Source: a bacterium (GTDB taxonomy: Bacteria > Bacillota > Clostridia > Oscillospirales > Acutalibacteraceae). Taken from it: a stretch of 64,000 nt of DNA. A program made the position numbers and the translations under genes. The notes under the pieces are model-generated. The model worked only from the letters and a program-made list of their open reading frames with translations, did not search any database and was not told the DNA's origin. Each line of letters starts with the position of its first letter. Within the stretch, counting starts at the first letter, position 1. Shown in pieces: positions 1,571-35,880 of this stretch. Location: positions 1,851 through 65,850 of the forward strand of contig JAXYDM010000009.1 of the NCBI GenBank assembly GCA_037368805.1, given 5' to 3'.

Positions 1571-2779
1571 TTGTCAACCATCGAAAAGAGAAGAGCCACG
1601 CTCATAAATCTCGTCTATTATTCATTGCTGATAGCTGCGTATTATCTGTTTCTGAAATACGCATTCTGGATAGTCGCGCCGTTTATCTTCGCCTTTGCGG
1701 TCGCAATGTTCCTGCAAAAGCCGATACGCAAAATAAATAAAAAGACCAAGATAAAGAAGGGCATAATCGGCTTTGTCGCGGTCATACTCATCTTCGCCAT
1801 CCTCGCCAGCCTGCTCGTGCTCGTCGGCTACCGGATAGGCGTTGAGTTCAAAGGCTTTGCCGATTATATAATGCATAAGCTCGAGGACTTCCCGAACCTT
1901 ATCCGCTCGGCGGAGGCGTGGGTCAATAATGCGGTCAGCTTCCTGCCCGATGCCATAGAGAAAACGATAACCGACGCAGTCAGTGACTTCACCGATAAGC
2001 TCCTGCTCGTCACCAAGGAGGACTCCGACATCCAGCAGGGTCTCTCCAGCGGCTTCTCGGGCATAGACCTCTCGGTGCTTAAGACCCCGCTCGGCGGCCT
2101 GCTCTCCACGGCGAAGCAGATACCCGCTGCACTGACGGCGGCGCTCATCGGCCTCATCGCCTGCTTCTTCATCACCTGCGATTACGATAATTTCACCTCG
2201 ATGATAAAGCGCAACGTCTCCGAGAAGCACGAGCACGCCCTTGTCAGGACAAAGCACCTGCTCATAGATATCCTCGGCAAAATGTGCAAATCCTACCTCA
2301 CCATAATGTTCGTCACCTTCTGCGAGGTCTCGATAGGGCTTAATATATTGAAGCTCATCGGCGTATACACGGGCGGATATATCCTCGTCATAGCGATATG
2401 CACAGCCCTTGTCGATATCCTGCCCATATTCGGCACAGGCACGGTGATGATACCGTGGGCAGTGGTCAGCCTCTTCACGGGTAAGACAGGCCTCGGCATA
2501 GGCCTGCTGGTCATCTACGGCATAATCACGGTCATCCGTCAGATACTCGAGCCGAGGCTCGTTGCAATGAACGTCGACATGCCCCCGATACTCACCCTTG
2601 CAGGCATGTATATCGGCCTGCAGCTCTTCGGCGTGGTAGGCATGTTCATGGTGCCCATCACATTCGTGCTCATCAAGGCGCTCAACAGCGAGGGCATAAT
2701 CCACCTTTACGGCAGGGAAAAGCCCGCCGAGGAGGAGGAAACGCCCGCCGAAAATGCCGAGAAAGTCGAAACCGAGTAA
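1571..2779 (+). CDS. AI-2E/PerM family membrane protein, YtvI-like (sporulation integral membrane protein type)
   Basis: 402 aa and polytopic. N-terminal pattern APFIFAFAVAMFLQKPI resembles YtvI/PerM. TTG start 9 nt after AGGAGG (1556-1561). Confidence 0.7.
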   Translation: MSTIEKRRATLINLVYYSLLIAAYYLFLKYAFWIVAPFIFAFAVAMFLQKPIRKINKKTKIKKGIIGFVAVILIFAILASLLVLVGYRIGVEFKGFADYIMHKLEDFPNLIRSAEAWVNNAVSFLPDAIEKTITDAVSDFTDKLLLVTKEDSDIQQGLSSGFSGIDLSVLKTPLGGLLSTAKQIPAALTAALIGLIACFFITCDYDNFTSMIKRNVSEKHEHALVRTKHLLIDILGKMCKSYLTIMFVTFCEVSIGLNILKLIGVYTGGYILVIAICTALVDILPIFGTGTVMIPWAVVSLFTGKTGLGIGLLVIYGIITVIRQILEPRLVAMNVDMPPILTLAGMYIGLQLFGVVGMFMVPITFVLIKALNSEGIIHLYGREKPAEEEETPAENAEKVETE

Positions 2780-2839
2780 AAAAAGCACAAGAAAAGTGCA
2801 TTTCAGCAGTAATTTTTATAAAAAACACCAAAAAAATTA

Positions 2840-2868
2840 TTGAAATGGCATAACTTTTGTGCTATAAT
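2840..2868 (+). promoter_or_regulatory. sigma-A type promoter upstream of the EF-G paralog
   Basis: TTGAAA (2840-2845), 17-nt spacer, TGc-TATAAT (extended -10; TATAAT at 2863-2868). Confidence 0.55.
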
Positions 2869-2951
2869 TACTTCAATACGGTATTAAATACTGGATTTAA
2901 ACTTGTTCCCGTGCGCATCGCCGACGGGTTTACATTAAGGAGGAAGTTTTT

Positions 2952-5000
2952 TTGAAAGCCTATAATGCCAAAGACATCAGAAACATCGCCATTGCCGGCC
3001 ACAGCGGCAGAGGCAAGACCACCCTCGCCGAAGCAATGCTCTTCCTTGCAAAGGCTACCGACAGACTCGGCAGAGTTGCCGACGGCAACACCGTGCTTGA
3101 CTTCGACGCAGAGGAAAAGAGACGCAAGGTCACAATAGCCACCGCCATGGCGGCTTTTGATTGGAATAACACCAAGATCAACCTGCTTGACACTCCGGGT
3201 CTTTTCGACTTCGCGGGCGGCGTGAGCGAGGGTATGCGTGCAGCCGAGAGCGCACTCATCGTCCTTGCAGCCGGCTCCGGCGTGGACGTCGGCGCAGAGA
3301 AGGCTTACAAAGCCGCTTCCGAGAGGAAGATAGCAAAGCTCTTCGCAGTCACCCGCTGCGACGCCGAGAACACCGACTTCTACAAGACCTTTGACGCTCT
3401 TAAAGAGGAATACGGCGCTCCCGTATGCCCCGTCGTCGTTCCCTATATGGAGGGCGACGCAGTCAAGGGCTATGTCGATTTCTCGACAGGCAAGGCTTAC
3501 GCTTACAACGGCGGCAAGGCAAGCGAGATCGCTATGCCCGCCGACGACAGAATAGAAGAAATGAAAGAGGTCTTTAACGAGGCAGTTGCCTCCGCCGACG
3601 AGGAGCTTATGGAGAAGTTCTTCGAGGGCGAGGCTCTCACCGCCGAGGAGATCGCAAAGGGTCTCAAGGCAGGCATCATCGCGGGCGACATCTACCCCGT
3701 ATACGCTTGCTCCGGCTACACCACCGACGGTGTCGACCTGCTCCTCAACGGCATTGTCAGCGCCGCTCCCGACGCCGCAAGTTGCGCGGGCGAAGGCGAT
3801 ATCAAGTGCGACGAAAACGGCGCTCTTGCGGCTATCTGCTTCAAGACCGTTGCCGACCCGTTCGTCGGTAAGATGTCCTTCTTCAAGGTCGTCTCCGGCA
3901 AAATCACATCCGACACTCCCGCTTACAACGCCCGCACAGGCGAGAGCGAGAGAATGGGTAAGATAATCACCCTCAAGGGCGCTAAGCAGGAGGATTCCGC
4001 TTGCATCCCCGCCGGTGATATCGGCGTTGTCACCAAGCTCTCCGGCTTCAAGACCGGCGACACCCTCTGCGCCCCCAAGGCTGATATAGAGCTTGCAGGC
4101 GTCAACTTCCCGAAGCCCTGCCTTCCCATGGCTGTCAAGGCTCGCAAGAAGGGCGAGGAGGACAAGATCGCTGCCGGCCTCAACAGACTTGCGGAAGAGG
4201 ATCTTACCATATCCTACACCACCAACCCCGAGACCAAGGAGCAGATCCTTTCGGGTCTCGGCGAGCAGCATCTTGACTCGGTAGTTACCAAGCTCAAGAA
4301 TAAATTCGGCGTTGAGGTCGACCTCTCCGTTCCCAAGGTCGCATACAGAGAAACCGTCAGCAAGACCTCCTATGTCCAGGGCAGACATAAGAAGCAGTCC
4401 GGCGGCAGCGGCCAGTTCGGCGATGTTTGGATCAGATTTGAGCATATCGACGGCGACGGCTTCGAGTTTGCCGAGGAAGTTGTCGGCGGCTCCGTTCCCA
4501 AGAACTTCTTCCCCGCAGTCGAAAAGGGTCTGCGCGAAGCGATCCTCAAGGGTCCCCTTGCCGGTTATCCCGTTGTCGGTCTGAAGGCAACCCTCTGCGA
4601 CGGTTCGTCCCACCCCGTTGACTCCAACGAAATGGCGTTCAAGACCGCCGCAAAGATCGCTTACAAGAACGGTATGCCCCTTGCGAATCCCAAGCTCCTT
4701 GAGCCCTACGGCTCACTGAAGGCTTATATGCCCGGCGACAACCTCGGCGATATCATGGGCGATATCACCAAGAGGCGCGGCCGCGTGCTCGGCATGGGTC
4801 CCTGCGAGGATGACCCCAAGATGCAGGAGCTCGTCGCCGAAGTTCCTATGGCTGAGATGGGCGATTTCGCCACCGTGCTCCGCTCCGTCACCGCCGGCAG
4901 AGGCTACTTCTCATTCGTATTTGACCACTATGAGGCCGCTCCCGAGAACGTCGCTCAGAAGGTCATTGAGGAAGCTAAGGCCTCCGCAGAGGAAGAATAA
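2952..5000 (+). CDS. elongation factor G family GTPase (EF-G paralog)
   Basis: 682 aa. G1 motif AIAGHSGRGKTTL, DTPG G3 motif, and EF-G domains II-V recognisable. TTG start after AAGGAGGAAG. Confidence 0.85.
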   Translation: MKAYNAKDIRNIAIAGHSGRGKTTLAEAMLFLAKATDRLGRVADGNTVLDFDAEEKRRKVTIATAMAAFDWNNTKINLLDTPGLFDFAGGVSEGMRAAESALIVLAAGSGVDVGAEKAYKAASERKIAKLFAVTRCDAENTDFYKTFDALKEEYGAPVCPVVVPYMEGDAVKGYVDFSTGKAYAYNGGKASEIAMPADDRIEEMKEVFNEAVASADEELMEKFFEGEALTAEEIAKGLKAGIIAGDIYPVYACSGYTTDGVDLLLNGIVSAAPDAASCAGEGDIKCDENGALAAICFKTVADPFVGKMSFFKVVSGKITSDTPAYNARTGESERMGKIITLKGAKQEDSACIPAGDIGVVTKLSGFKTGDTLCAPKADIELAGVNFPKPCLPMAVKARKKGEEDKIAAGLNRLAEEDLTISYTTNPETKEQILSGLGEQHLDSVVTKLKNKFGVEVDLSVPKVAYRETVSKTSYVQGRHKKQSGGSGQFGDVWIRFEHIDGDGFEFAEEVVGGSVPKNFFPAVEKGLREAILKGPLAGYPVVGLKATLCDGSSHPVDSNEMAFKTAAKIAYKNGMPLANPKLLEPYGSLKAYMPGDNLGDIMGDITKRRGRVLGMGPCEDDPKMQELVAEVPMAEMGDFATVLRSVTAGRGYFSFVFDHYEAAPENVAQKVIEEAKASAEEE

Positions 5001-5312: not shown

Positions 5313-5921
5313 ATGTCATTTTATATTCGGCAATTCCTGCCGTATCTTGCAGTCTCGGCGGTGGTGTATCTGCCGTTCCGTCTGAGAAAAAAGCGCAGCA
5401 GTCTGATCCCCGACCTCATATTCTTTGTCTATATCGTGGCGCTGCTCATGCTGACCGTATTGCCAATGGTTTTCGTCGCTCAACACGGCCTGCTCGTCAG
5501 GCCCCCGTGCGCCGATGTGCTGCTGGGGCTCGGCAAGATTGAGACGATACCTCAGCCCTCGGAGAGAAGCCTGCAATTGCAGCCGTTCGCAACGGTTATC
5601 GGTCTGTTGACTGATGACGCCCTGCCGCAGCGGGTGCGGCTCTATCGTGCCGCCGCCAACATTCTCGGCAATCTGGCGCTGCTCATGCCGTTCGGCTTCC
5701 TGTTCCCGCTCAAAAGCGGCGCGGGACTTGGCAAAACCTGCGCCGTCGGGCTTGCCGCCGTGCTCGGCATAGAGATCATCCAGTATTTTGAGGGTCGTGT
5801 CGCCGATATCGACGACGTTATTTTGAATTTTGTCGGCATACTGCTCGGATTCGCGGCTTACTGCATTTTTACAAAAATAAAAGCCCTCGTCCGCTCACGA
5901 AAGGAGCTTCGGAAGGCTTAA
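5313..5921 (+). CDS. VanZ family membrane protein
   Basis: 202 aa with 4-5 TM segments. Shows LGNLALLMPFGFLFP and DIDDVILNFVGILLGF, typical of VanZ-like proteins. Confidence 0.75.
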   Translation: MSFYIRQFLPYLAVSAVVYLPFRLRKKRSSLIPDLIFFVYIVALLMLTVLPMVFVAQHGLLVRPPCADVLLGLGKIETIPQPSERSLQLQPFATVIGLLTDDALPQRVRLYRAAANILGNLALLMPFGFLFPLKSGAGLGKTCAVGLAAVLGIEIIQYFEGRVADIDDVILNFVGILLGFAAYCIFTKIKALVRSRKELRKA

Positions 5922-6036
5922 ATCATTCGGTTATTTCCGCAAAGCGATCCATATCGCTCTGCAATTTCTCAATGACCGCTCTTTTTCAATAAACGCTCCG
6001 TAGAGTCGGATAATTTACGGAAAGAAGGCGAGTATT

Positions 6037-6504
6037 TTGATAACCTCAGAGCGAGCGACCGAGCTTGCGAGAGAAAACTATGACGATATACTCCGCTTCT
6101 GCCTGTCACGTCTCGGCGACGAGTGGGAGGCGGCCGACGCGGCGCAGGAGGTATTCCTGCTGCTGCGGCAGCTGCTCGGCGAGCTGGAGGACTGCAATCT
6201 GAGAGGCTGGCTCTTCGCCGTTGCGGATAAAAAAATAAAAGAAGCCCGCCTGAACGCCTCAAGGCGCAAGCGGGAGCTGATATTGGAGGATATCGCCGAA
6301 TCTCTCCGCAGCGAATCGGGCGAGCTTTGCCCCGCATGCGAGCTGACCCGTCCCCTCGGCGAGAAGGATCGCGGGCTTTTTGAAATGATATATGAGCGGG
6401 GCATGAGCCACGCCGATATCAGCCGCGCCCTCGGCGTCTCCGACGGCGCCCTGCGAGTGAGAATATGTAGGCTTAAAGCTAAATTGATGAAAAACATAAA
6501 TTAA
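6037..6504 (+). CDS. RNA polymerase sigma-70 family (ECF-like) sigma factor
   Basis: 155 aa. Region-2-like DAAQEVFLLL and region-4 HTH MSHADISRALGVSDGALRVRICRLKAKL. TTG start. Confidence 0.75.
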   Translation: MITSERATELARENYDDILRFCLSRLGDEWEAADAAQEVFLLLRQLLGELEDCNLRGWLFAVADKKIKEARLNASRRKRELILEDIAESLRSESGELCPACELTRPLGEKDRGLFEMIYERGMSHADISRALGVSDGALRVRICRLKAKLMKNIN

Positions 6505-20847: not shown

Positions 20848-22131
20848 ATGGAAACATTGTTTTGCATTTCTACAGCTCTTGCAGCGGGCCTCTTTATGAC
20901 CCGCCCCGCAAAGAAACTCGGCCTGCCCGCGGTCACGGCGTACCTCGTTGCGGGCATCCTCATCGGCCCCTACTGCCTCGGCAGGCTCGGCATAGAGGGT
21001 CTGGGCTTCGTCTCCGCCGAGAGCGTTCAGGCGCTCGGGCTTTTCTCCGATGTTGCGCTGGGCTTCATAGCCTTTGCTATAGGCAACGAATTCAGGCTCT
21101 CGCAGCTCAAAAAAATTGGAGGGAAGGCCACCTTTATCGGTATTTTGCAGGCAGTCATAACAGCAGCTGTCGTTGACGCCGCGCTGCTCGTGCTGCATAT
21201 ATTCCTCGGCGAGAAGCTTCCCGTGCCCATGGCGCTGACCCTCGGTGCAATTGCGGCGGCGACCGCCCCTGCGGCGACCCTCATGGTCGTGAGGCAGTAT
21301 AAGGCAAAGGGCAAGCTGACCGACCTGCTGCTCCCGATAGTCGCTATCGACGACGCCGTAGGCCTTGTCGTATTCTCCGTCTCGTTCGGCGTGGCAAGGG
21401 CCATGGTCAACGGCGAATTCAGCATAATCTCTATCGCCGTCGAGCCGATAATCGAGATAGTCTGCTCGCTGGCGCTCGGCGCTCTGATGGGCGTGCTCTT
21501 CACCTTCTGCGAAAAATTCTTCAACTCAAACAGCAAGCGTCTCTGCCTGTCGCTGACCTTCGTGCTCTTTACGGTCGCGATCTCAAAGCTCGAATTTGAG
21601 ATAGGCGGCGTGCATATCGGCTTCTCCGCCCTGCTCGTCTGCATGATGCTCGGCACGATATTCTGCAACATGTGCGATTTCTCCGCCGAGATCATGGACA
21701 AGACCGACAAATGGACTGTGCCGCTCTTCGCTCTCTTCTTTGTTATCAGCGGTGCGGAGCTGGAGCTTAACGTATTCTCCGACCCCGCGATAATCGGCAT
21801 CGGTGCGGCTTACATACTTTCCCGCTCGGCGGGCAAATACATCGGCGCATTCTCAAGCTGCAAGATGGCGAAATGCGACGAAAAGACCACCCGCTACCTC
21901 GGCGTGACGCTGCTGCCCCAGGCGGGCGTGGCGCTCGGAATGTCGGTCACGGTCATGGAATTGGGCGACATCGGCTCGATAATCAGAAATATCATTCTTT
22001 TCTCCGTGCTGGTCTATGAGCTGCTCGGCCCCGTGCTCACCAAGATAGCGCTGACCAAGGCTGGCGACATCACCGAGAAGCCGAAGGAGAAGGAGCGCAA
22101 GCACCGCACTCCCCCCGCGAAGATAAATTAA
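20848..22131 (+). CDS. cation:proton antiporter (Na+/H+ exchanger, CPA family)
   Basis: 427 aa with about 12 TM helices. N-terminus LGLPAVTAYLVAGILIGPYCLG is typical of Kef/NapA-like exchangers. Confidence 0.8.
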   Translation: METLFCISTALAAGLFMTRPAKKLGLPAVTAYLVAGILIGPYCLGRLGIEGLGFVSAESVQALGLFSDVALGFIAFAIGNEFRLSQLKKIGGKATFIGILQAVITAAVVDAALLVLHIFLGEKLPVPMALTLGAIAAATAPAATLMVVRQYKAKGKLTDLLLPIVAIDDAVGLVVFSVSFGVARAMVNGEFSIISIAVEPIIEIVCSLALGALMGVLFTFCEKFFNSNSKRLCLSLTFVLFTVAISKLEFEIGGVHIGFSALLVCMMLGTIFCNMCDFSAEIMDKTDKWTVPLFALFFVISGAELELNVFSDPAIIGIGAAYILSRSAGKYIGAFSSCKMAKCDEKTTRYLGVTLLPQAGVALGMSVTVMELGDIGSIIRNIILFSVLVYELLGPVLTKIALTKAGDITEKPKEKERKHRTPPAKIN

Positions 22132-22143
22132 ACAGCTTCAAAA

Positions 22144-22206
22144 AATCCTGCGAAAACTCTAATGTCCGTTTTTTACGGACTTGTTCAAAAACGCAGGATT
22201 TTTTTG
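22144..22206 (+). terminator. compound terminator after the antiporter gene
   Basis: Outer stem AATCCTGCG (22144-22152) / CGCAGGATT (22192-22200) plus TTTTT. Inner hairpin GTCCGT/ACGGAC (22164-22180). Confidence 0.7.
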
Positions 22207-22303
22207 CGATTTCGAAATGAATGTGTTGTAATATTTTTAAAAAAGCGGAAATCCTTGTATTTTCAAGGGTTTTCGCTTTTTCTTGTTACTAAACTGTTAC
22301 TAC

Positions 22304-22993
22304 TTATTTTAGAAGGTTGATTGCTTCCTTCAATTCCTCAATAGTTTTATGGGTGTAAACTCTTTCACCAACTTCCTTTGACTTATGCCCCATCATTAAA
22401 TCAATGCAGACTTTATTTGCACCGGCAGAATCCAATCTTGACCGGAAAGTGTGTCGGCATTCGTGCGGTGTATGGTGTATTTTAAGTTCATCCATAACCC
22501 GATTCCAAAAGATATAATACTGACTTGTGGAAAGTTTCTTTCCGTTGTATGAAAATAAATACTTTCCGGTTTCGGTCATTCGCTGCTTAACAAACTTCTG
22601 AATTCGTGGATGAATTGGAACAATTCTATCTTTACCGGCTTTGGTCTTGATACCGCCCTTCACAGTCATCTGTTCAAGATCAACATTTGCTTTTTCAATC
22701 GTCAGCATTTCACCGATTCGGAAACCTGTATATAGCAGAAACAAAACACTGTCACACCATTCTTGACATTCAATATCCCAAACCGATGTTATTGGGATAA
22801 ACACAAGCGGAAAGTTGAAATCTGTCGGTCTGCCGTGGGAAGGGTTTAATTCTGAAAAATCTGCAAAAACCATTGTTTCTGATATAAACAAAATTGTTAG
22901 TACGAAACAAGCAATTGTTTTTGATAATGCGTTCACCTCGATTAGCTTGTGCAAAAAAATAAATTTTTTAAACATAGACCAGTTGAATTTCAA
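22304..22993 (-). pseudogene. tyrosine recombinase/integrase, 5'-truncated (catalytic domain only)
   Basis: From about aa 75 the sequence is integrase-like: LLYTGFRIGE (Arg), GGIKTKAGKDRIVPI (Lys), HECRHTF (HxxR), MMGH, ERVYTH (Tyr). The first roughly 70 aa of the ORF are not integrase-like and no core-binding N-domain is present. Confidence 0.7.
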
Positions 22994-23155
22994 ATTCAGA
23001 TGCCTTCAGGAACAAAAGGTTTGGTCACAGATAATTGGAAGGAAAGTGAATTTATCACAAAACCCGGGACTGGGCTTGAAATTTTAGGCGCAAGGGAGTA
23101 TAATAATAACGGTAATGTTGGAGTTACTATTTTTGCAAAAATCATTCAAGACTAA
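22949..23155 (+). pseudogene. C-terminal fragment of an ADP-ribosyltransferase toxin domain
   Basis: The frame opens only at 22946 (TAG at 22943). VEFQIQMPSGTKGLVTDNWKESEFITKPGTGLEIL matches the ART pattern hxVPxGTKGxxI..S.F..ExE.hh.xG..hxI (ARTT loop and ExE). The N-terminal Arg and STS regions are absent. Confidence 0.5.
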
Positions 23156-23170
23156 GGTGGTGAAGAACAA

Positions 23171-23512
23171 TTGAATACGATAAAGGAAATATTATACAAT
23201 TCATTCAGCGACGCTGCAATTCTTTCTGCTGCTATTTGTGGGCAGTTAGAAGATGTTTCATATTGTTCTGAACACGGTATGAATCATATGAATGGTGGTA
23301 GAGAAGAAGCGAAATGGAATGCTGAAATGAAAAAGGCGGATGTCTATGCACAAAGAGATAATTTTGAAACTTTCAATAAATCAAACATTGATAATTTCAA
23401 AAAGAAGGTAAAAAAGTTTTTATCCGATAACCCGAACACCAGAATATTTGATAGGTTATCTGATAAAGAAAAATTCGCTGTTCGATATTTTTACTATCAC
23501 GGCATCTATTGA
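23171..23512 (+). CDS. hypothetical 113-aa protein (candidate cognate immunity protein)
   Basis: Begins 15 nt after the toxin-tail ORF; TTG start after GGTGGTGAAG. No homology recognised, so the call rests on position only. Confidence 0.35.
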   Translation: MNTIKEILYNSFSDAAILSAAICGQLEDVSYCSEHGMNHMNGGREEAKWNAEMKKADVYAQRDNFETFNKSNIDNFKKKVKKFLSDNPNTRIFDRLSDKEKFAVRYFYYHGIY

Positions 23513-23661
23513 TTTCAAACAATTAAATTTATTGATTCAAGTATCTTGCATTTGCAGGGTGCTTTTTTTATACCCTTCTTCAAAGGTCAGAAGTAAAACA
23601 GAGTATTTCAAAACAAGACGAAACTTGTAAAAATCGTAATTTGAAAGTGAGGAAATAAACA

Positions 23662-23778
23662 ATGACTTTACAGGAAATTCTCAAAGCAAAAGGTTTGGAT
23701 GATAAAGCAGTTGAAGAAAAAGATTGCAACGGCAAACGGGTTCACACCTTACTTGGGCACGGCGAAACAGAATGTTAA
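23662..23778 (+). pseudogene. phage scaffold (GP20-like) N-terminal scrap
   Basis: MTLQEILKAKGLDDKAVEE... resembles the common start of Firmicutes phage scaffolding proteins, then stops after 38 codons. GAGGAAA SD. Recognised from memory only. Confidence 0.3.
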
Positions 23779-23834
23779 AATGCTTGAACTGTTCAAACAG
23801 GGCAAATTAATAAAACCTTAAAGGGGGATTAATT

Positions 23835-23990
23835 ATGAACGAAATTACAGAATTCCTGAAGAATGCCTTTGATTCTTTTATGGGAACGGAGCTGCCGAAA
23901 CTGACGTTGACAAACCTTGTTGACGTGTTCAAATATTCGGCTGAAACATTCATTTCTCTTGCGTACAAGTATATTGAAATCTTCTTTTAA
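23835..23990 (+). CDS. small protein (51 aa), weak paralog of the 60-aa ORF at 11902-12084
   Basis: Protein is MNEITEFLKNAFDSFMGTELPKLTLTNLVDVFKYSAETFISLAYKYIEIFF. AAGGGGG SD lies 7 nt upstream. Followed by a terminator. Confidence 0.5.
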   Translation: MNEITEFLKNAFDSFMGTELPKLTLTNLVDVFKYSAETFISLAYKYIEIFF

Positions 23991-24005
23991 TTGAATCATT
24001 CTAAA

Positions 24006-32928: not shown

Positions 32929-33477
32929 TTACTTCATTTCTTCTTCTATCAGCGAAAAATAAACACAGTCTTCAATGCCAAATTCGGTCTTGTCTCTCAT
33001 TCTTAATGTTGCTTCGTTTTTAAATCCGAGCCGTTGCAGGACATTTTGCGAACGGATATTGCTTTCGGCGGCAAATGTGACGATATTATTGTAGCCTATC
33101 TCGACAAACCCGTAGCGAAGAACGACCCTTACCGTCTCGGTGGCATATCCGTTCCCCCAAAAGCCCGAGCCGAAGCAATATGATATGAAGCCCACTCCGG
33201 CGGCGGGATTCTCGTCATACAGATATATCGTGCCGATCAGGCTGTCGTTCTCTTTCAAAAACACGCCCCAATAGCACTCGTTTTGGTCATAATATTCCTG
33301 CCACTTGCGCAAATAATCAACGACCTGCGCCTCGTCGCTGTATGTATCCCAGGACATATATCCCGAAACCTTTTTGTCGGAATAAACATTCTCAAACAAC
33401 TGTTTTGAGTCGCTAATTTCTAATTTTCTCATGTAACAGCGCCGTGATTCCAGCGCTTTTGTACCCGAGTGGTTCAT
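32929..33477 (-). CDS. GNAT family N-acetyltransferase (RimJ/RimL-like)
   Basis: 182 aa. Acetyl-CoA binding region FWGNGYATETVRVVLRYGF and a typical RimL-like layout. Confidence 0.8.
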   Translation of the reverse strand: MNHSGTKALESRRCYMRKLEISDSKQLFENVYSDKKVSGYMSWDTYSDEAQVVDYLRKWQEYYDQNECYWGVFLKENDSLIGTIYLYDENPAAGVGFISYCFGSGFWGNGYATETVRVVLRYGFVEIGYNNIVTFAAESNIRSQNVLQRLGFKNEATLRMRDKTEFGIEDCVYFSLIEEEMK

Positions 33478-33541
33478 TTTTGCTCCTTTTTTATTTTGGC
33501 CCTTGCCTTGTCAATAATCTAATAAGCACATATACACATTA

Positions 33542-33710
33542 GTGAAATATTTTGCATATGCAAAATGTGAAATAACCGCTCCGCGGTTGTGAAATTTTCT
33601 GCTTCGCAGAAAGTGAAATGAAATCCACCCGTCGCCGCAGCGATTTCACACGCCGTCAGGCGCATTTCACATTGCGAAGCAATATTTCACCCACCCGAAG
33701 GGTGGATTTC
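33542..33710. repeat. mirror array of 'GTGAAAT + unique mini-hairpin' modules
   Basis: GTGAAAT at 33542, 33567, 33589 and 33613. ATTTCAC at 33643, 33664 and 33684, plus a partial ATTTC at 33706. Every 13-18 nt spacer is itself a different perfect palindrome/hairpin. Confidence 0.8.
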
Positions 33711-33714
33711 GTTG

Positions 33715-33745
33715 AAAAAAGCACTTCCGAAGAAGTGCTTTTTTC
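33715..33745. terminator. bidirectional terminator-like hairpin
   Basis: AAAAAA GCACTTC cgaa GAAGTGC TTTTTT. On the minus strand the loop is a C(UUCG)G tetraloop. Confidence 0.7.
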
Positions 33746-33767
33746 TGGCGTCCCCGGCGGGATTCGA
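33742..33767 (-). repeat. 26-nt duplicate of the tRNA-Arg 3' end plus 4 nt of 3' flank (att-like scar)
   Basis: tttcTGGCGTCCCCGGCGGGATTCGA is identical to 33896-33921. It covers CCA, the acceptor 3' strand and half of the T-arm. No matching 5' acceptor strand lies nearby. Confidence 0.8.
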
Positions 33768-33860
33768 CTCGCGCGCCTGCGGGCGCTTGGTCGCTCGCGG
33801 TCACAACAGTCCACCGGACTGTTGCTCTGTACCGCTCGTCCTTCGAATCCCTCCTCACAT

Positions 33861-33898
33861 GAAAAGAAAGTGCCCGCCTCTAAAGAGGCAGGCACTTT
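33861..33898 (-). terminator. terminator directly after tRNA-Arg
   Basis: Stem AAAGTGCCCGCCTC (33867-33880) / GAGGCAGGCACTTT (33885-33898). T-rich run follows on the minus strand. Confidence 0.65.
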
Positions 33899-33899
33899 C

Positions 33900-33976
33900 T
33901 GGCGTCCCCGGCGGGATTCGAACCCACGGCCTTTCGCTTAGGAGGCGAACGCTCTATCCTGCTGAGCTACGGAGAC
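33900..33976 (-). tRNA. tRNA-Arg (anticodon CCU), CCA encoded
   Basis: Reverse complement is GTCTCCGTAGCTCAGCAGGATAGAGCGTTCGCCTCCTAAGCGAAAGGCCGTGGGTTCGAATCCCGCCGGGGACGCCA. Cloverleaf with anticodon loop CUCCUAA. Confidence 0.9.
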
Positions 33977-35388: not shown

Positions 35389-35880
35389 ATGAAAAATGCA
35401 GATGCATTGCCCAAGCGGAAGCCTCTGAGGCTTAACGGATATGATTATTCTTCATGCGGAGCATACTTTATAACACTATGCGTCAAGGATAAACGCAGGA
35501 TTTTTTGGGAGAGCGTAGGGGCGAACTGTGTTCGCCCGGACATCGTTCCACTTTCAAGAATCGGGGAAATCGTTTCTCGGGAAATTCAAAAAATCAGCGT
35601 AATATATGACAATGTCGAAGTTGATAAATTTGTTGTCATGCCGAATCATGTCCATATGATATTGTCCATCCTTGCGGATGATCACGGGCGAACGCAGTTC
35701 GCCCCTACAGTATCGAGGGTAGTTAAGCAATTCAAGGGCTCCGTTACAAAACAAATCGGATTTTCTCCGTGGCAGCGCTCCTATCACGACCATGTGATAC
35801 GGAACGTGCGGGATTACGGGGAAATTTGGCAATACATTGACGAAAACCCGTTCCGTTGGGAATCGGATTGCTATTATTAA
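35389..35880 (+). CDS. RAYT / IS200-like Y1 HUH tyrosine transposase family protein
   Basis: 163 aa. HUH motif VMPNHVHMI. WQRSYHDHVIRNVRDYGEIWQYIDENP parallels E. coli RayT WQPRFWEHAIRNTKDY...DYIYINP (catalytic Tyr context). G+C is lower than pgk/tpiA by eye, and there is no SD. Confidence 0.8.
   Translation: MKNADALPKRKPLRLNGYDYSSCGAYFITLCVKDKRRIFWESVGANCVRPDIVPLSRIGEIVSREIQKISVIYDNVEVDKFVVMPNHVHMILSILADDHGRTQFAPTVSRVVKQFKGSVTKQIGFSPWQRSYHDHVIRNVRDYGEIWQYIDENPFRWESDCYY
35515..35538 (+). repeat. intragenic REP-like hairpin 1 (GTAG + 8-bp GC-rich stem)
   Basis: GTAG GGGCGAAC TGT GTTCGCCC G. Confidence 0.85.
35685..35708 (-). repeat. intragenic REP-like hairpin 2, inverted copy of hairpin 1
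   Basis: C GGGCGAAC GCA GTTCGCCC CTAC. This is the reverse complement of 35515-35538 apart from one loop base. Confidence 0.85.

Follow-up and report, generated by a model that had tools for sequence, protein, structure and literature searches.

A dispersed two-armed repeat of Gut-1 motifs behind tRNA genes, with a candidate protein partner of the PF05635 family

Introduction

The closest described relative of the array discussed here is Gut-1, which was published in 2010 as a motif from gut metagenomes with no function given (Weinberg et al., 2010; PMC2864571). In its published form Gut-1 is a single motif of 77 nt, seen only in human gut sequences and rated a likely non-coding RNA without genomic context (PMC2864571). 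Rfam (RF01706) classes it as "Gene; sRNA" with a consensus that reads UGAAAU, hairpin, GUGAAAU, hairpin, GUGAAAU, hairpin, GUGAAAU, and in the accessible literature the 2010 paper was the sole mention of Gut-1 or RF01706 that could be found.

Several other systems resemble the element in part. REP, BIME and REPIN repeats are likewise dispersed extragenic units of a constant short motif and a hairpin, arranged in inverted clusters and present in near-identical copies per genome, and in both cases many non-coding copies may be served by a protein that is encoded only once. The 23S rRNA intervening sequences that encode a PF05635 protein place a member of this family by or inside a stable-RNA gene and have complementary arms. 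The heptads of the omega protein of pSM19035 are contiguous 7-bp sites in direct and inverted orientation that are read as duplex DNA; like the heptamers described below they lie directly upstream of the promoter of a gene for a small multimeric binding protein, binding to our element being putative. In the attP arms of integrases that target tRNA genes, short direct and inverted repeats lie no more than ~250 bp from a T-loop crossover, and the 3' end of the tRNA is duplicated. As for the PF05635 family, it is very large and we know of no role for it outside diversity-generating retroelements.

The array lies in a 64-kb stretch of DNA (64,000 nt, the window, in full the whole stretch that was analysed) from the human-gut species Clostridium sp. 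CAG:413. Its motif family is known. The composite of two arms, the long-range helix P0, the linkage to tRNA genes and terminators, the additional heptamer types and the PF05635 partner are absent from the published single motif and were not found elsewhere in the accessible literature, nor was the dispersed multi-copy nature of the element, although the two-armed composite and its long-range helix are visible, undescribed, in the flanks of the Gut-1 authors' own alignment.

The array behind tRNA-Arg

Read along the minus strand from the tRNA gene onwards, the locus consists of the following parts.

34030-34002: promoter-like site TTGACA-17-TAAACT of the tRNA-Arg gene (promoter scan)
33900..33976, minus strand: tRNA-Arg(CCT) gene (ARAGORN; Rfam tRNA, 67.8 bits), with the array downstream on the same strand
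33865..33900, minus strand: first terminator-like hairpin, immediately next to the 3' end of the tRNA, within a 154-bp insertion (terminator scan)
33768..33864, minus strand: segment S of the insertion, species-specific; its core (33802-33844) recurs at other composite loci of the species
33746..33767, minus strand: exact 22-nt copy of the tRNA-Arg 3' end (3' part of the T-loop, acceptor strand, CCA), a recombination scar
33716..33745, both directions: bidirectional intrinsic terminator with A6, 7-bp stem, CGAA loop and T6 (read from the sequence)
33638..33714, minus strand: tRNA-proximal arm, an Rfam Gut-1 motif (cmscan, 87.6 bits)
within the proximal arm, minus strand: lead CAACGAAAT, containing a degenerate heptamer (33706-33712)
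within the proximal arm, minus strand: hairpins P1 (33691-33705), 33671-33683 and 33650-33663
within the proximal arm, minus-strand sense: GTGAAAT at 33684-33690, 33664-33670 and 33643-33649
33620..33642, minus strand: centre, with a small hairpin (33633-33642) and X' (33620-33630; GGGTGGATTTC on the minus strand)
33540..33619, plus strand: distal arm, a second and weaker Gut-1 copy whose match spans 33540-33624 (cmscan, 52.4 bits)
within the distal arm, read on the minus strand: ATTTCAC four times, with hairpins 33596-33612, 33574-33588 and 33549-33566 between
32929..33477, minus strand: GNAT acetyltransferase gene (Pfam), 65 nt downstream of the last heptamer

The preliminary description of this DNA had read the anatomy correctly, as a mirror-symmetric arrangement of a constant heptamer with variable palindromic spacers. 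GTGAAAT is found on the plus strand at 33542, 33567, 33589 and 33613 and ATTTCAC at 33643, 33664 and 33684; an incomplete copy, ATTTC, follows at 33706. Each spacer is a different mini-hairpin, perfect or near-perfect. Also borne out are the exact complementarity of GAAATCCACCC (33620-33630) and GGGTGGATTTC (33700-33710), which proved to form the most strongly conserved helix in the element, and the exact duplication of the 22 nt at the 3' end of tRNA-Arg, with copies at 33746-33767 and 33900-33921. Two negative statements hold as well. The array is not a CRISPR, having 7-nt repeats, palindromic spacers of 9-21 nt, an inverted second set and no cas domains in the neighbouring ORFs; and it is not a series of terminators, as only the hairpin at 33716-33745 has A and T runs and the inner hairpins are followed by a heptamer.

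In the whole window there are 15 exact heptamers, seven of them inside 150 nt; the rate outside the array is about 8 per 128 kb of strand, and ~0.02 would be expected per such stretch. Either strand of the array folds with a z-score of about -6.5 relative to shuffles. It is confirmed that the array is real and far beyond chance. The terminator at 33716..33745, whose T-run abuts the array in an arrangement found alike in most composites, was missed by a simple terminator scan, which takes its A and T runs as part of the stem. The GNAT gene is a neighbour and no conserved partner, the genes downstream of 30 composites being diverse. A promoter scan of the composites found no conserved promoter for the array on either strand, and no PF05635 gene adjoins the array in the window. 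The window array is a complete solo copy of a two-armed structured repeat of ~190 nt.

Gut-1 motifs and the two-armed composite

Contrary to the preliminary description, which could not name the array, it belongs to Rfam Gut-1 and comprises two convergent copies of this motif in the extent 33540-33714. Both arms pass the Rfam gathering score of 50 bits for Gut-1, the array matches the consensus, and it contains the three covarying hairpins joined by conserved GUGAAAU that mark the family.

A pattern scan for heptamer arrays in 185,579 species genomes yielded 120 loci, and searching beyond the locus, as had been proposed, led to dozens of independent loci with a common architecture. Among 131 heptamer clusters in public genomes, 74 have at least two hairpin spacers, and the remaining 57 (50 without a hairpin spacer and seven with one, two of which were later rescued as true composites) constitute a built-in control. 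About 38 of the 74 true Gut-1 loci are two-armed composites of ~190 nt with fixed polarity, in which three to four GTGAAAT are followed by three to four ATTTCAC (++++----); the reverse order was never seen. The composite is asymmetric: on the minus strand of the window it reads T-run, CAACGAAAT, P1, three units of GTGAAAT plus hairpin, a small hairpin, GTGAG, X', three units of ATTTCAC plus hairpin and a last ATTTCAC. Each arm carries about five heptamer-like elements, three or four of them exact and the others degenerate, and the spacing of the modules in composites varies between 16 and 28 nt. Near-identical composites are found at several tRNA loci per genome. In viral contigs about five true arrays were found among 119 pattern matches, none at an obvious phage feature.

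A second class of arrays (class II) contains GTGAAAT only and is situated 3' of ordinary genes, without tRNA or PF05635. Class II arrays at seven loci (L005, L007, L015, L022, L037, L086, L114) end in a purine-rich motif resembling GTKAAGGARG that is followed by a hairpin, some are closed by a sense-strand terminator, and at L007 further hairpins lie upstream, joined by CATCAT linkers. After several composites (L029, L041, L116, L117, L057) a motif GAGTTCGAAT...GAAAATATCTTTTT is conserved that looks like a degenerate T-arm of a tRNA with a T-run after it.

Helices, covariation and strand

How well are the small helices conserved? In a 23-sequence alignment the hairpins P1 and Q1-Q3 are 89.3% paired, as compared to 64% in shuffles and at most 45% when the sequences are slid, and 26 of the 28 pairs have changed on both sides. 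Taken separately, the distal hairpins Q1-Q3 show 83-95% pairing, and compensatory changes have occurred in 20 of their 21 pairs. Helices P2-P4 were judged from the Rfam alignment and by parsing, not from the MAFFT alignment of the left arm, because they are too register-shifted there. Over a longer distance, X' pairs with GAAAT and the 5' strand of P1 (33700-33710) to form the helix P0 of 11 bp, which closes the proximal arm. P0 is 98.4% paired with both sides changed at seven of 11 pairs, and in 24 of the 36 parsed composites its two strands are fully complementary along 10-12 nt, in at least five sequence types. P1 and P0 have a strand in common and are therefore mutually exclusive. All mini-hairpins covary and so does P0.

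The stems are almost purely Watson-Crick, with 1187 Watson-Crick pairs, 11 G.T and 15 A.C, and the comparison of G.U with A.C counts in stems, which was tried as a test for the active strand, gave no G.U excess on either strand. The loops do have an orientation: TNC on the GTGAAAT strand corresponds to GNA or GNRA on the ATTTCAC strand. Since the loops are oriented relative to the heptamer, the element consists of two mirrored sets of one oriented module.

Heptamer types

The sequence of the heptamer is family-specific, and in every case the partner arm carries its complement. Four types were found.

GTGAAAT/ATTTCAC: composites including that of the window; PF05635 clade A
GTGATAT (GUGAUAU/AUAUCAC): flanks of the original Rfam seed
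ATGAAGC/GCTTCAY: strain L256 and loci of PF05635 clade B
ATATAAC/GTTATAT: Akkermansia

The ATGAAGC type and the other heptamer types are not detected by the Rfam Gut-1 model.

Complementary arms could imply that the heptamers pair with each other in nested fashion, as the preliminary description had proposed. In every family the two arms are complementary, but individual pairs lend the idea no support: among 104 nested heptamer pairs within composites 10 carry a single change, and none of the 10 is compensated. Nested heptamer helices, though present in minimum-free-energy folds, were rejected as a cis structure on these grounds. The uncompensated changes together with the variable spacing fit a common trans-acting factor better than cis helices, and the heptamers look like putative recognition sites and not like partners of a helix in cis.

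Linkage to tRNA genes and variable flanks

In 16 of 38 composites a tRNA gene precedes the composite by 32-85 nt and shares its strand with the high-scoring arm; a tRNA also occurs in this position at one more locus, the polarity of which is ambiguous. The tRNA can be of any identity, those found including Arg, Trp, Leu, Gly, Asn, Ala, Glu, Gln, Ser, Thr and Tyr. Between tRNA and composite there is an intrinsic terminator, its T-run abutting CAACGAAAT. A co-occurrence with RAYT-like genes, which the preliminary description had put up for inspection, was not seen, none being present in any Gut-1 locus.

The distance from tRNA to array in the window is 210 nt, made up of 56 nt and the 154-bp insertion (33746-33899), which is bounded by the exact 22-nt copies of the tRNA-Arg 3' end and contains a terminator of its own and segment S. 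Strain L256 does not have the insertion, and there the second terminator comes immediately after the tRNA. An Rfam scan of the insertion gave no significant match. S is confined to this species; at other loci it comes after a composite and runs up to a junction in the T-loop, where it meets the 3' end of another tRNA, and in other assemblies the position of 33746-33767 is occupied by Pro-type, hybrid Arg/Pro and other tRNA-type versions. The insertion looks like the scar of a site-specific recombination in the T-loop.

Contigs that encode an identical GNAT protein show the same terminator, composite and GNAT gene joined to four left flanks: tRNA-Arg with the insertion, a tRNA-Gly-Arg-His-Gln cluster, tRNA-Pro with a Pro 3' copy, and a hybrid Arg/Pro core (found in L244). 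Three k=31 contigs break within the composite. An exact search of metagenomes with the 47-nt left arm of the window's species found this arm behind tRNA-Gln, tRNA-Pro, tRNA-Leu and Arg-type and other tRNA 3' fragments, with at least four different right flanks, one of which has a clade-A PF05635 gene, and in at least five combinations of flanks. The left arm occurs twice on one contig (L310), in tandem units of ~366 nt, and two assemblies each have it on two large contigs. The variable flanks could have arisen by T-loop or homologous recombination, or by assembler joins across the repeat. With either origin, the composite is dispersed and near-identical within a genome, a repeat tied to variable genome junctions and to breaks of metagenome contigs in abundant uncultured gut Clostridia and in Akkermansia.

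In other strains (L257, L263 and L264, which share the same pgk locus) an island with a tRNA-Arg copy of its own is inserted in the anticodon loop of the same tRNA-Arg, and in L240 genes for a 487-aa tyrosine integrase and HTH_17 proteins lie beside a 3' half of tRNA-Arg.

A four-helix-bundle protein as candidate partner

When composites are selected by the heptamer alone, a PF05635/TIGR02436 gene with its promoter follows seven of ~38, and ~80% have unrelated downstream genes. When homologues of the PF05635 protein are selected by protein alone, a composite lies directly upstream in 18 of 18 inspected contexts, and likewise in strain L256 and at an Akkermansia locus. Provided that the contig extends far enough, the 18 contexts begin with a tRNA or a 3' fragment of one; then come terminator, composite, promoter and gene. 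Such homologues number in the thousands at 83-98% identity, mostly on contigs shorter than 2 kb.

Genes of clade A are found with GTGAAAT arrays, genes of clade B, which are 52% identical to clade A, with ATGAAGC arrays, and the Akkermansia homologue with ATATAAC arrays. At the chromosomal site of the window, strain L256 has two ATGAAGC composites and a clade-B gene that replace the solo GTGAAAT array. The heptamer type thus matches the PF05635 clade in these sequences, and such co-variation could also reflect only linkage within one mobile module. Repeats with clade-specific heptamers next to a PF05635 gene, i.e. an adjacency of the iteron or operator type, occur at these other loci and not in the window. 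Clostridium sp. CAG:413 itself has a clade-A PF05635 gene behind a composite at another locus (L303, L314, L317, L324), which follows tRNA-Gln in three of the four contigs. The structure 2RLD of this family has five chains, and the family member Xcc0516 is described as a pentamer, as cited in PMC3936711.

Further arrangements were seen at several loci. In L313 and L316 the left arm with X' passes straight into the middle of a PF05635 ORF, with an apparent deletion that runs through the microhomology GATTTCATT / GATTTTATT. In L021 (900-1100 and 1435-1500) and L112 the PF05635 genes are flanked by contiguous 7-nt repeats without hairpin spacers, AATGAGA/AATTAGA upstream and ATTTCAC/ATTGCTC downstream, which suggests that the 7-nt register itself matters. 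In an Akkermansia MAG (L004) three tandem units of 440 nt at 2150-3460 each contain a Gut-1 match followed by an array of hairpins with CGAGATT linkers, and, apart from these, there is an ATATAAC/GTTATAT mirror array with a PF05635 gene downstream of it (5700-6170). Constant-linker hairpin arrays therefore exist outside Clostridia, with several linker types.

How might the element work?

The reading we favour, tentatively and at somewhat less than an even chance, is that of a tRNA-linked structured repeat whose heptamers would be read by a trans-acting factor, most likely a PF05635 protein. Briefly, the heptamers would be the recognition sites of this factor, probably a PF05635 pentamer, and the palindromic spacers would fold out on a single strand, be it RNA from read-through of the tRNA gene or transiently unwound DNA. 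It could be imagined that folding-out of the spacers puts the heptamers side by side, whatever the length of the spacer. One PF05635 gene could then serve many solo arrays, which might act as regulator, insulator or propagation site; in Clostridium sp. CAG:413 the partner in trans would be the gene behind the composite that follows tRNA-Gln in three of four contigs. Sequence-specific binding of nucleic acid by PF05635 proteins is putative. Linking Gut-1 with PF05635 yields a hypothesis on either of them that can be put to the test; in its favour are the four heptamer types, matched to protein clades as a specificity code, the strict position behind tRNA genes and the many solo copies per genome.

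The systems closest to this reading differ from the composite in layout. The omega-protein heptads are contiguous, whereas the heptamers of the composite are separated by palindromes of variable length (9-21 nt). In the case of the 23S rRNA intervening sequences, the likeness extends to heptad arrays that flank the PF05635 ORF on both sides in L021. In contrast to them the composite is situated behind tRNA genes and its arms are adjacent to each other, upstream of the ORF and broken by fold-out hairpins. For the window copy an assignment to the intervening sequences was rejected: the array lies behind a tRNA, the window contains no rRNA and the copy has no ORF.

A bolder version would take the Gut-1 composite and PF05635 as an unrecognised two-part system, in which the pentamer reads the five heptads of each arm, the system homes to the 3' flanks of tRNA genes, as the related 23S intervening sequences would home to rRNA, and the solo arrays reshuffle genomes. 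We consider this version possible but rather improbable. If true, it would provide a function for an RNA motif orphaned since 2010 and for the "Avd-like / 23S IVS protein" family outside diversity-generating retroelements.

The main alternative is an RNA that acts independently of a protein, either as two convergent Gut-1 sRNAs or as one RNA of ~190 nt derived from tRNA read-through or processing, which would be a sponge or scaffold without PF05635. The two Rfam scores above the gathering threshold, the strong compensatory changes, the folding z-score of about -6.5 and the bias of the loops for TNC on the GTGAAAT strand and GNA/GNRA on the other speak for such an RNA, and a sense-strand terminator follows some class II arrays and the composites of L032. 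However, the T-run of the terminator abuts the 5' end of the composite and therefore leaves no room for a promoter, none being conserved on either strand, and in roughly one copy out of five the far end directly adjoins the -35 box of the following gene (the next gene's promoter abuts the last heptamer in six of 35 composites as compared to 4% of shuffles). Moreover, G.U pairs are not in excess on either strand, the two-fold symmetry of the composite means that both strands read alike, and the heptamers are invariant, though paired positions would be expected to covary. On balance we judge a stand-alone RNA unlikely.

Could the composite instead be the arm region of small integrative elements that target tRNA genes, the heptamers being arm-type sites for a tyrosine integrase or an accessory factor? 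The tRNA 3' end, terminator, composite and S would then constitute a miniature element devoid of an integrase and moved in trans by crossover in the T-loop. The exact tRNA 3'-end duplicate beside the array speaks for it, as do the terminator and composite that follow Arg-, Pro- and Leu-type, other and hybrid Arg/Pro fragments with the junction always in the T-loop, the tandem units of L310, the integrase gene 300 nt after the composite in L072 and the tRNA-Arg site as a hot spot for islands (L240, L257). An integrase is encoded, however, by only one of 30 downstream genes, most composites follow an intact tRNA and precede ordinary genes without a second att copy, and S is confined to this species; variable flanks are also produced by homologous recombination or assembler mis-joins between identical copies. 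Conserved hairpins and the arrays away from tRNA genes are left unexplained. From known attP arms the composite is set apart by its conserved hairpin spacers, the missing integrase in 29 of 30 cases and the many copies without a second att. As a candidate for the window array an attP arm was also rejected, since the window contains no further copy of the core or T-loop and the core duplication brackets only 154 bp. The integrative-element explanation is accordingly one to which we give a low probability.

Very unlikely, in our estimation, is a repeat of the REP, BIME or REPIN type propagated by a RAYT-like HUH enzyme. The preliminary description had noted a gene for an HUH enzyme 1.7 kb away and speculated on a link to the array. 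The gene (35389-35880) indeed encodes a RAYT relative of 163 aa with the HUH motif HVH and a tyrosine in RSYHDHVIR (NF047646, E=9e-17, below the cut-off; PDB 4ER8, E=9e-5), homologues of which are named RayT by JGI, and the composite resembles REPs as an extragenic, dispersed, multi-copy unit with a short motif beside a hairpin in inverted clusters. The link itself did not materialize. The gene sits tightly between pgk and tpiA with no array beside it in the window, no arrays were found within 10 kb of its homologues in three other genomic contexts (L250-L255), and tblastn over all Gut-1 loci revealed no RAYT gene. Conversely, some strains keep the array with the RAYT-like gene shortened or missing. 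The hairpins within one array all differ, unlike those of REPs, so that the dispersed, inverted multi-copy units are there and the flanking cognate RAYT and a conserved palindrome sequence are not; the candidate partner of the composite is a four-helix-bundle protein and not an HUH enzyme. Among strains with identical PGK the RAYT relative has 163, 157 or 145 aa or is missing, and in other Oscillospirales its homologues are also found inside operons, for example before queH.

A locus-specific accident, i.e. decayed terminators or chance repeats, for which only the position beside terminators speaks, is refuted by the recurrence at dozens of independent loci, the compensatory changes and the two Rfam matches above threshold, and its probability is negligible.

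Other features of the window

Two further features of the window may be recorded. An ORF of 660 aa at 30142-32124 matches no Pfam family and shows a faint match to delta-60 repeats; every strain that was compared retains it beside the genes for GNAT and DUF3784. At 22000-24000 the G+C content is low (0.34-0.39 as compared to ~0.54), and an ORF of 229 aa of the Phage_integrase family (22304-22993) is located there; this patch is probably the remnant of a small island unrelated to the array.
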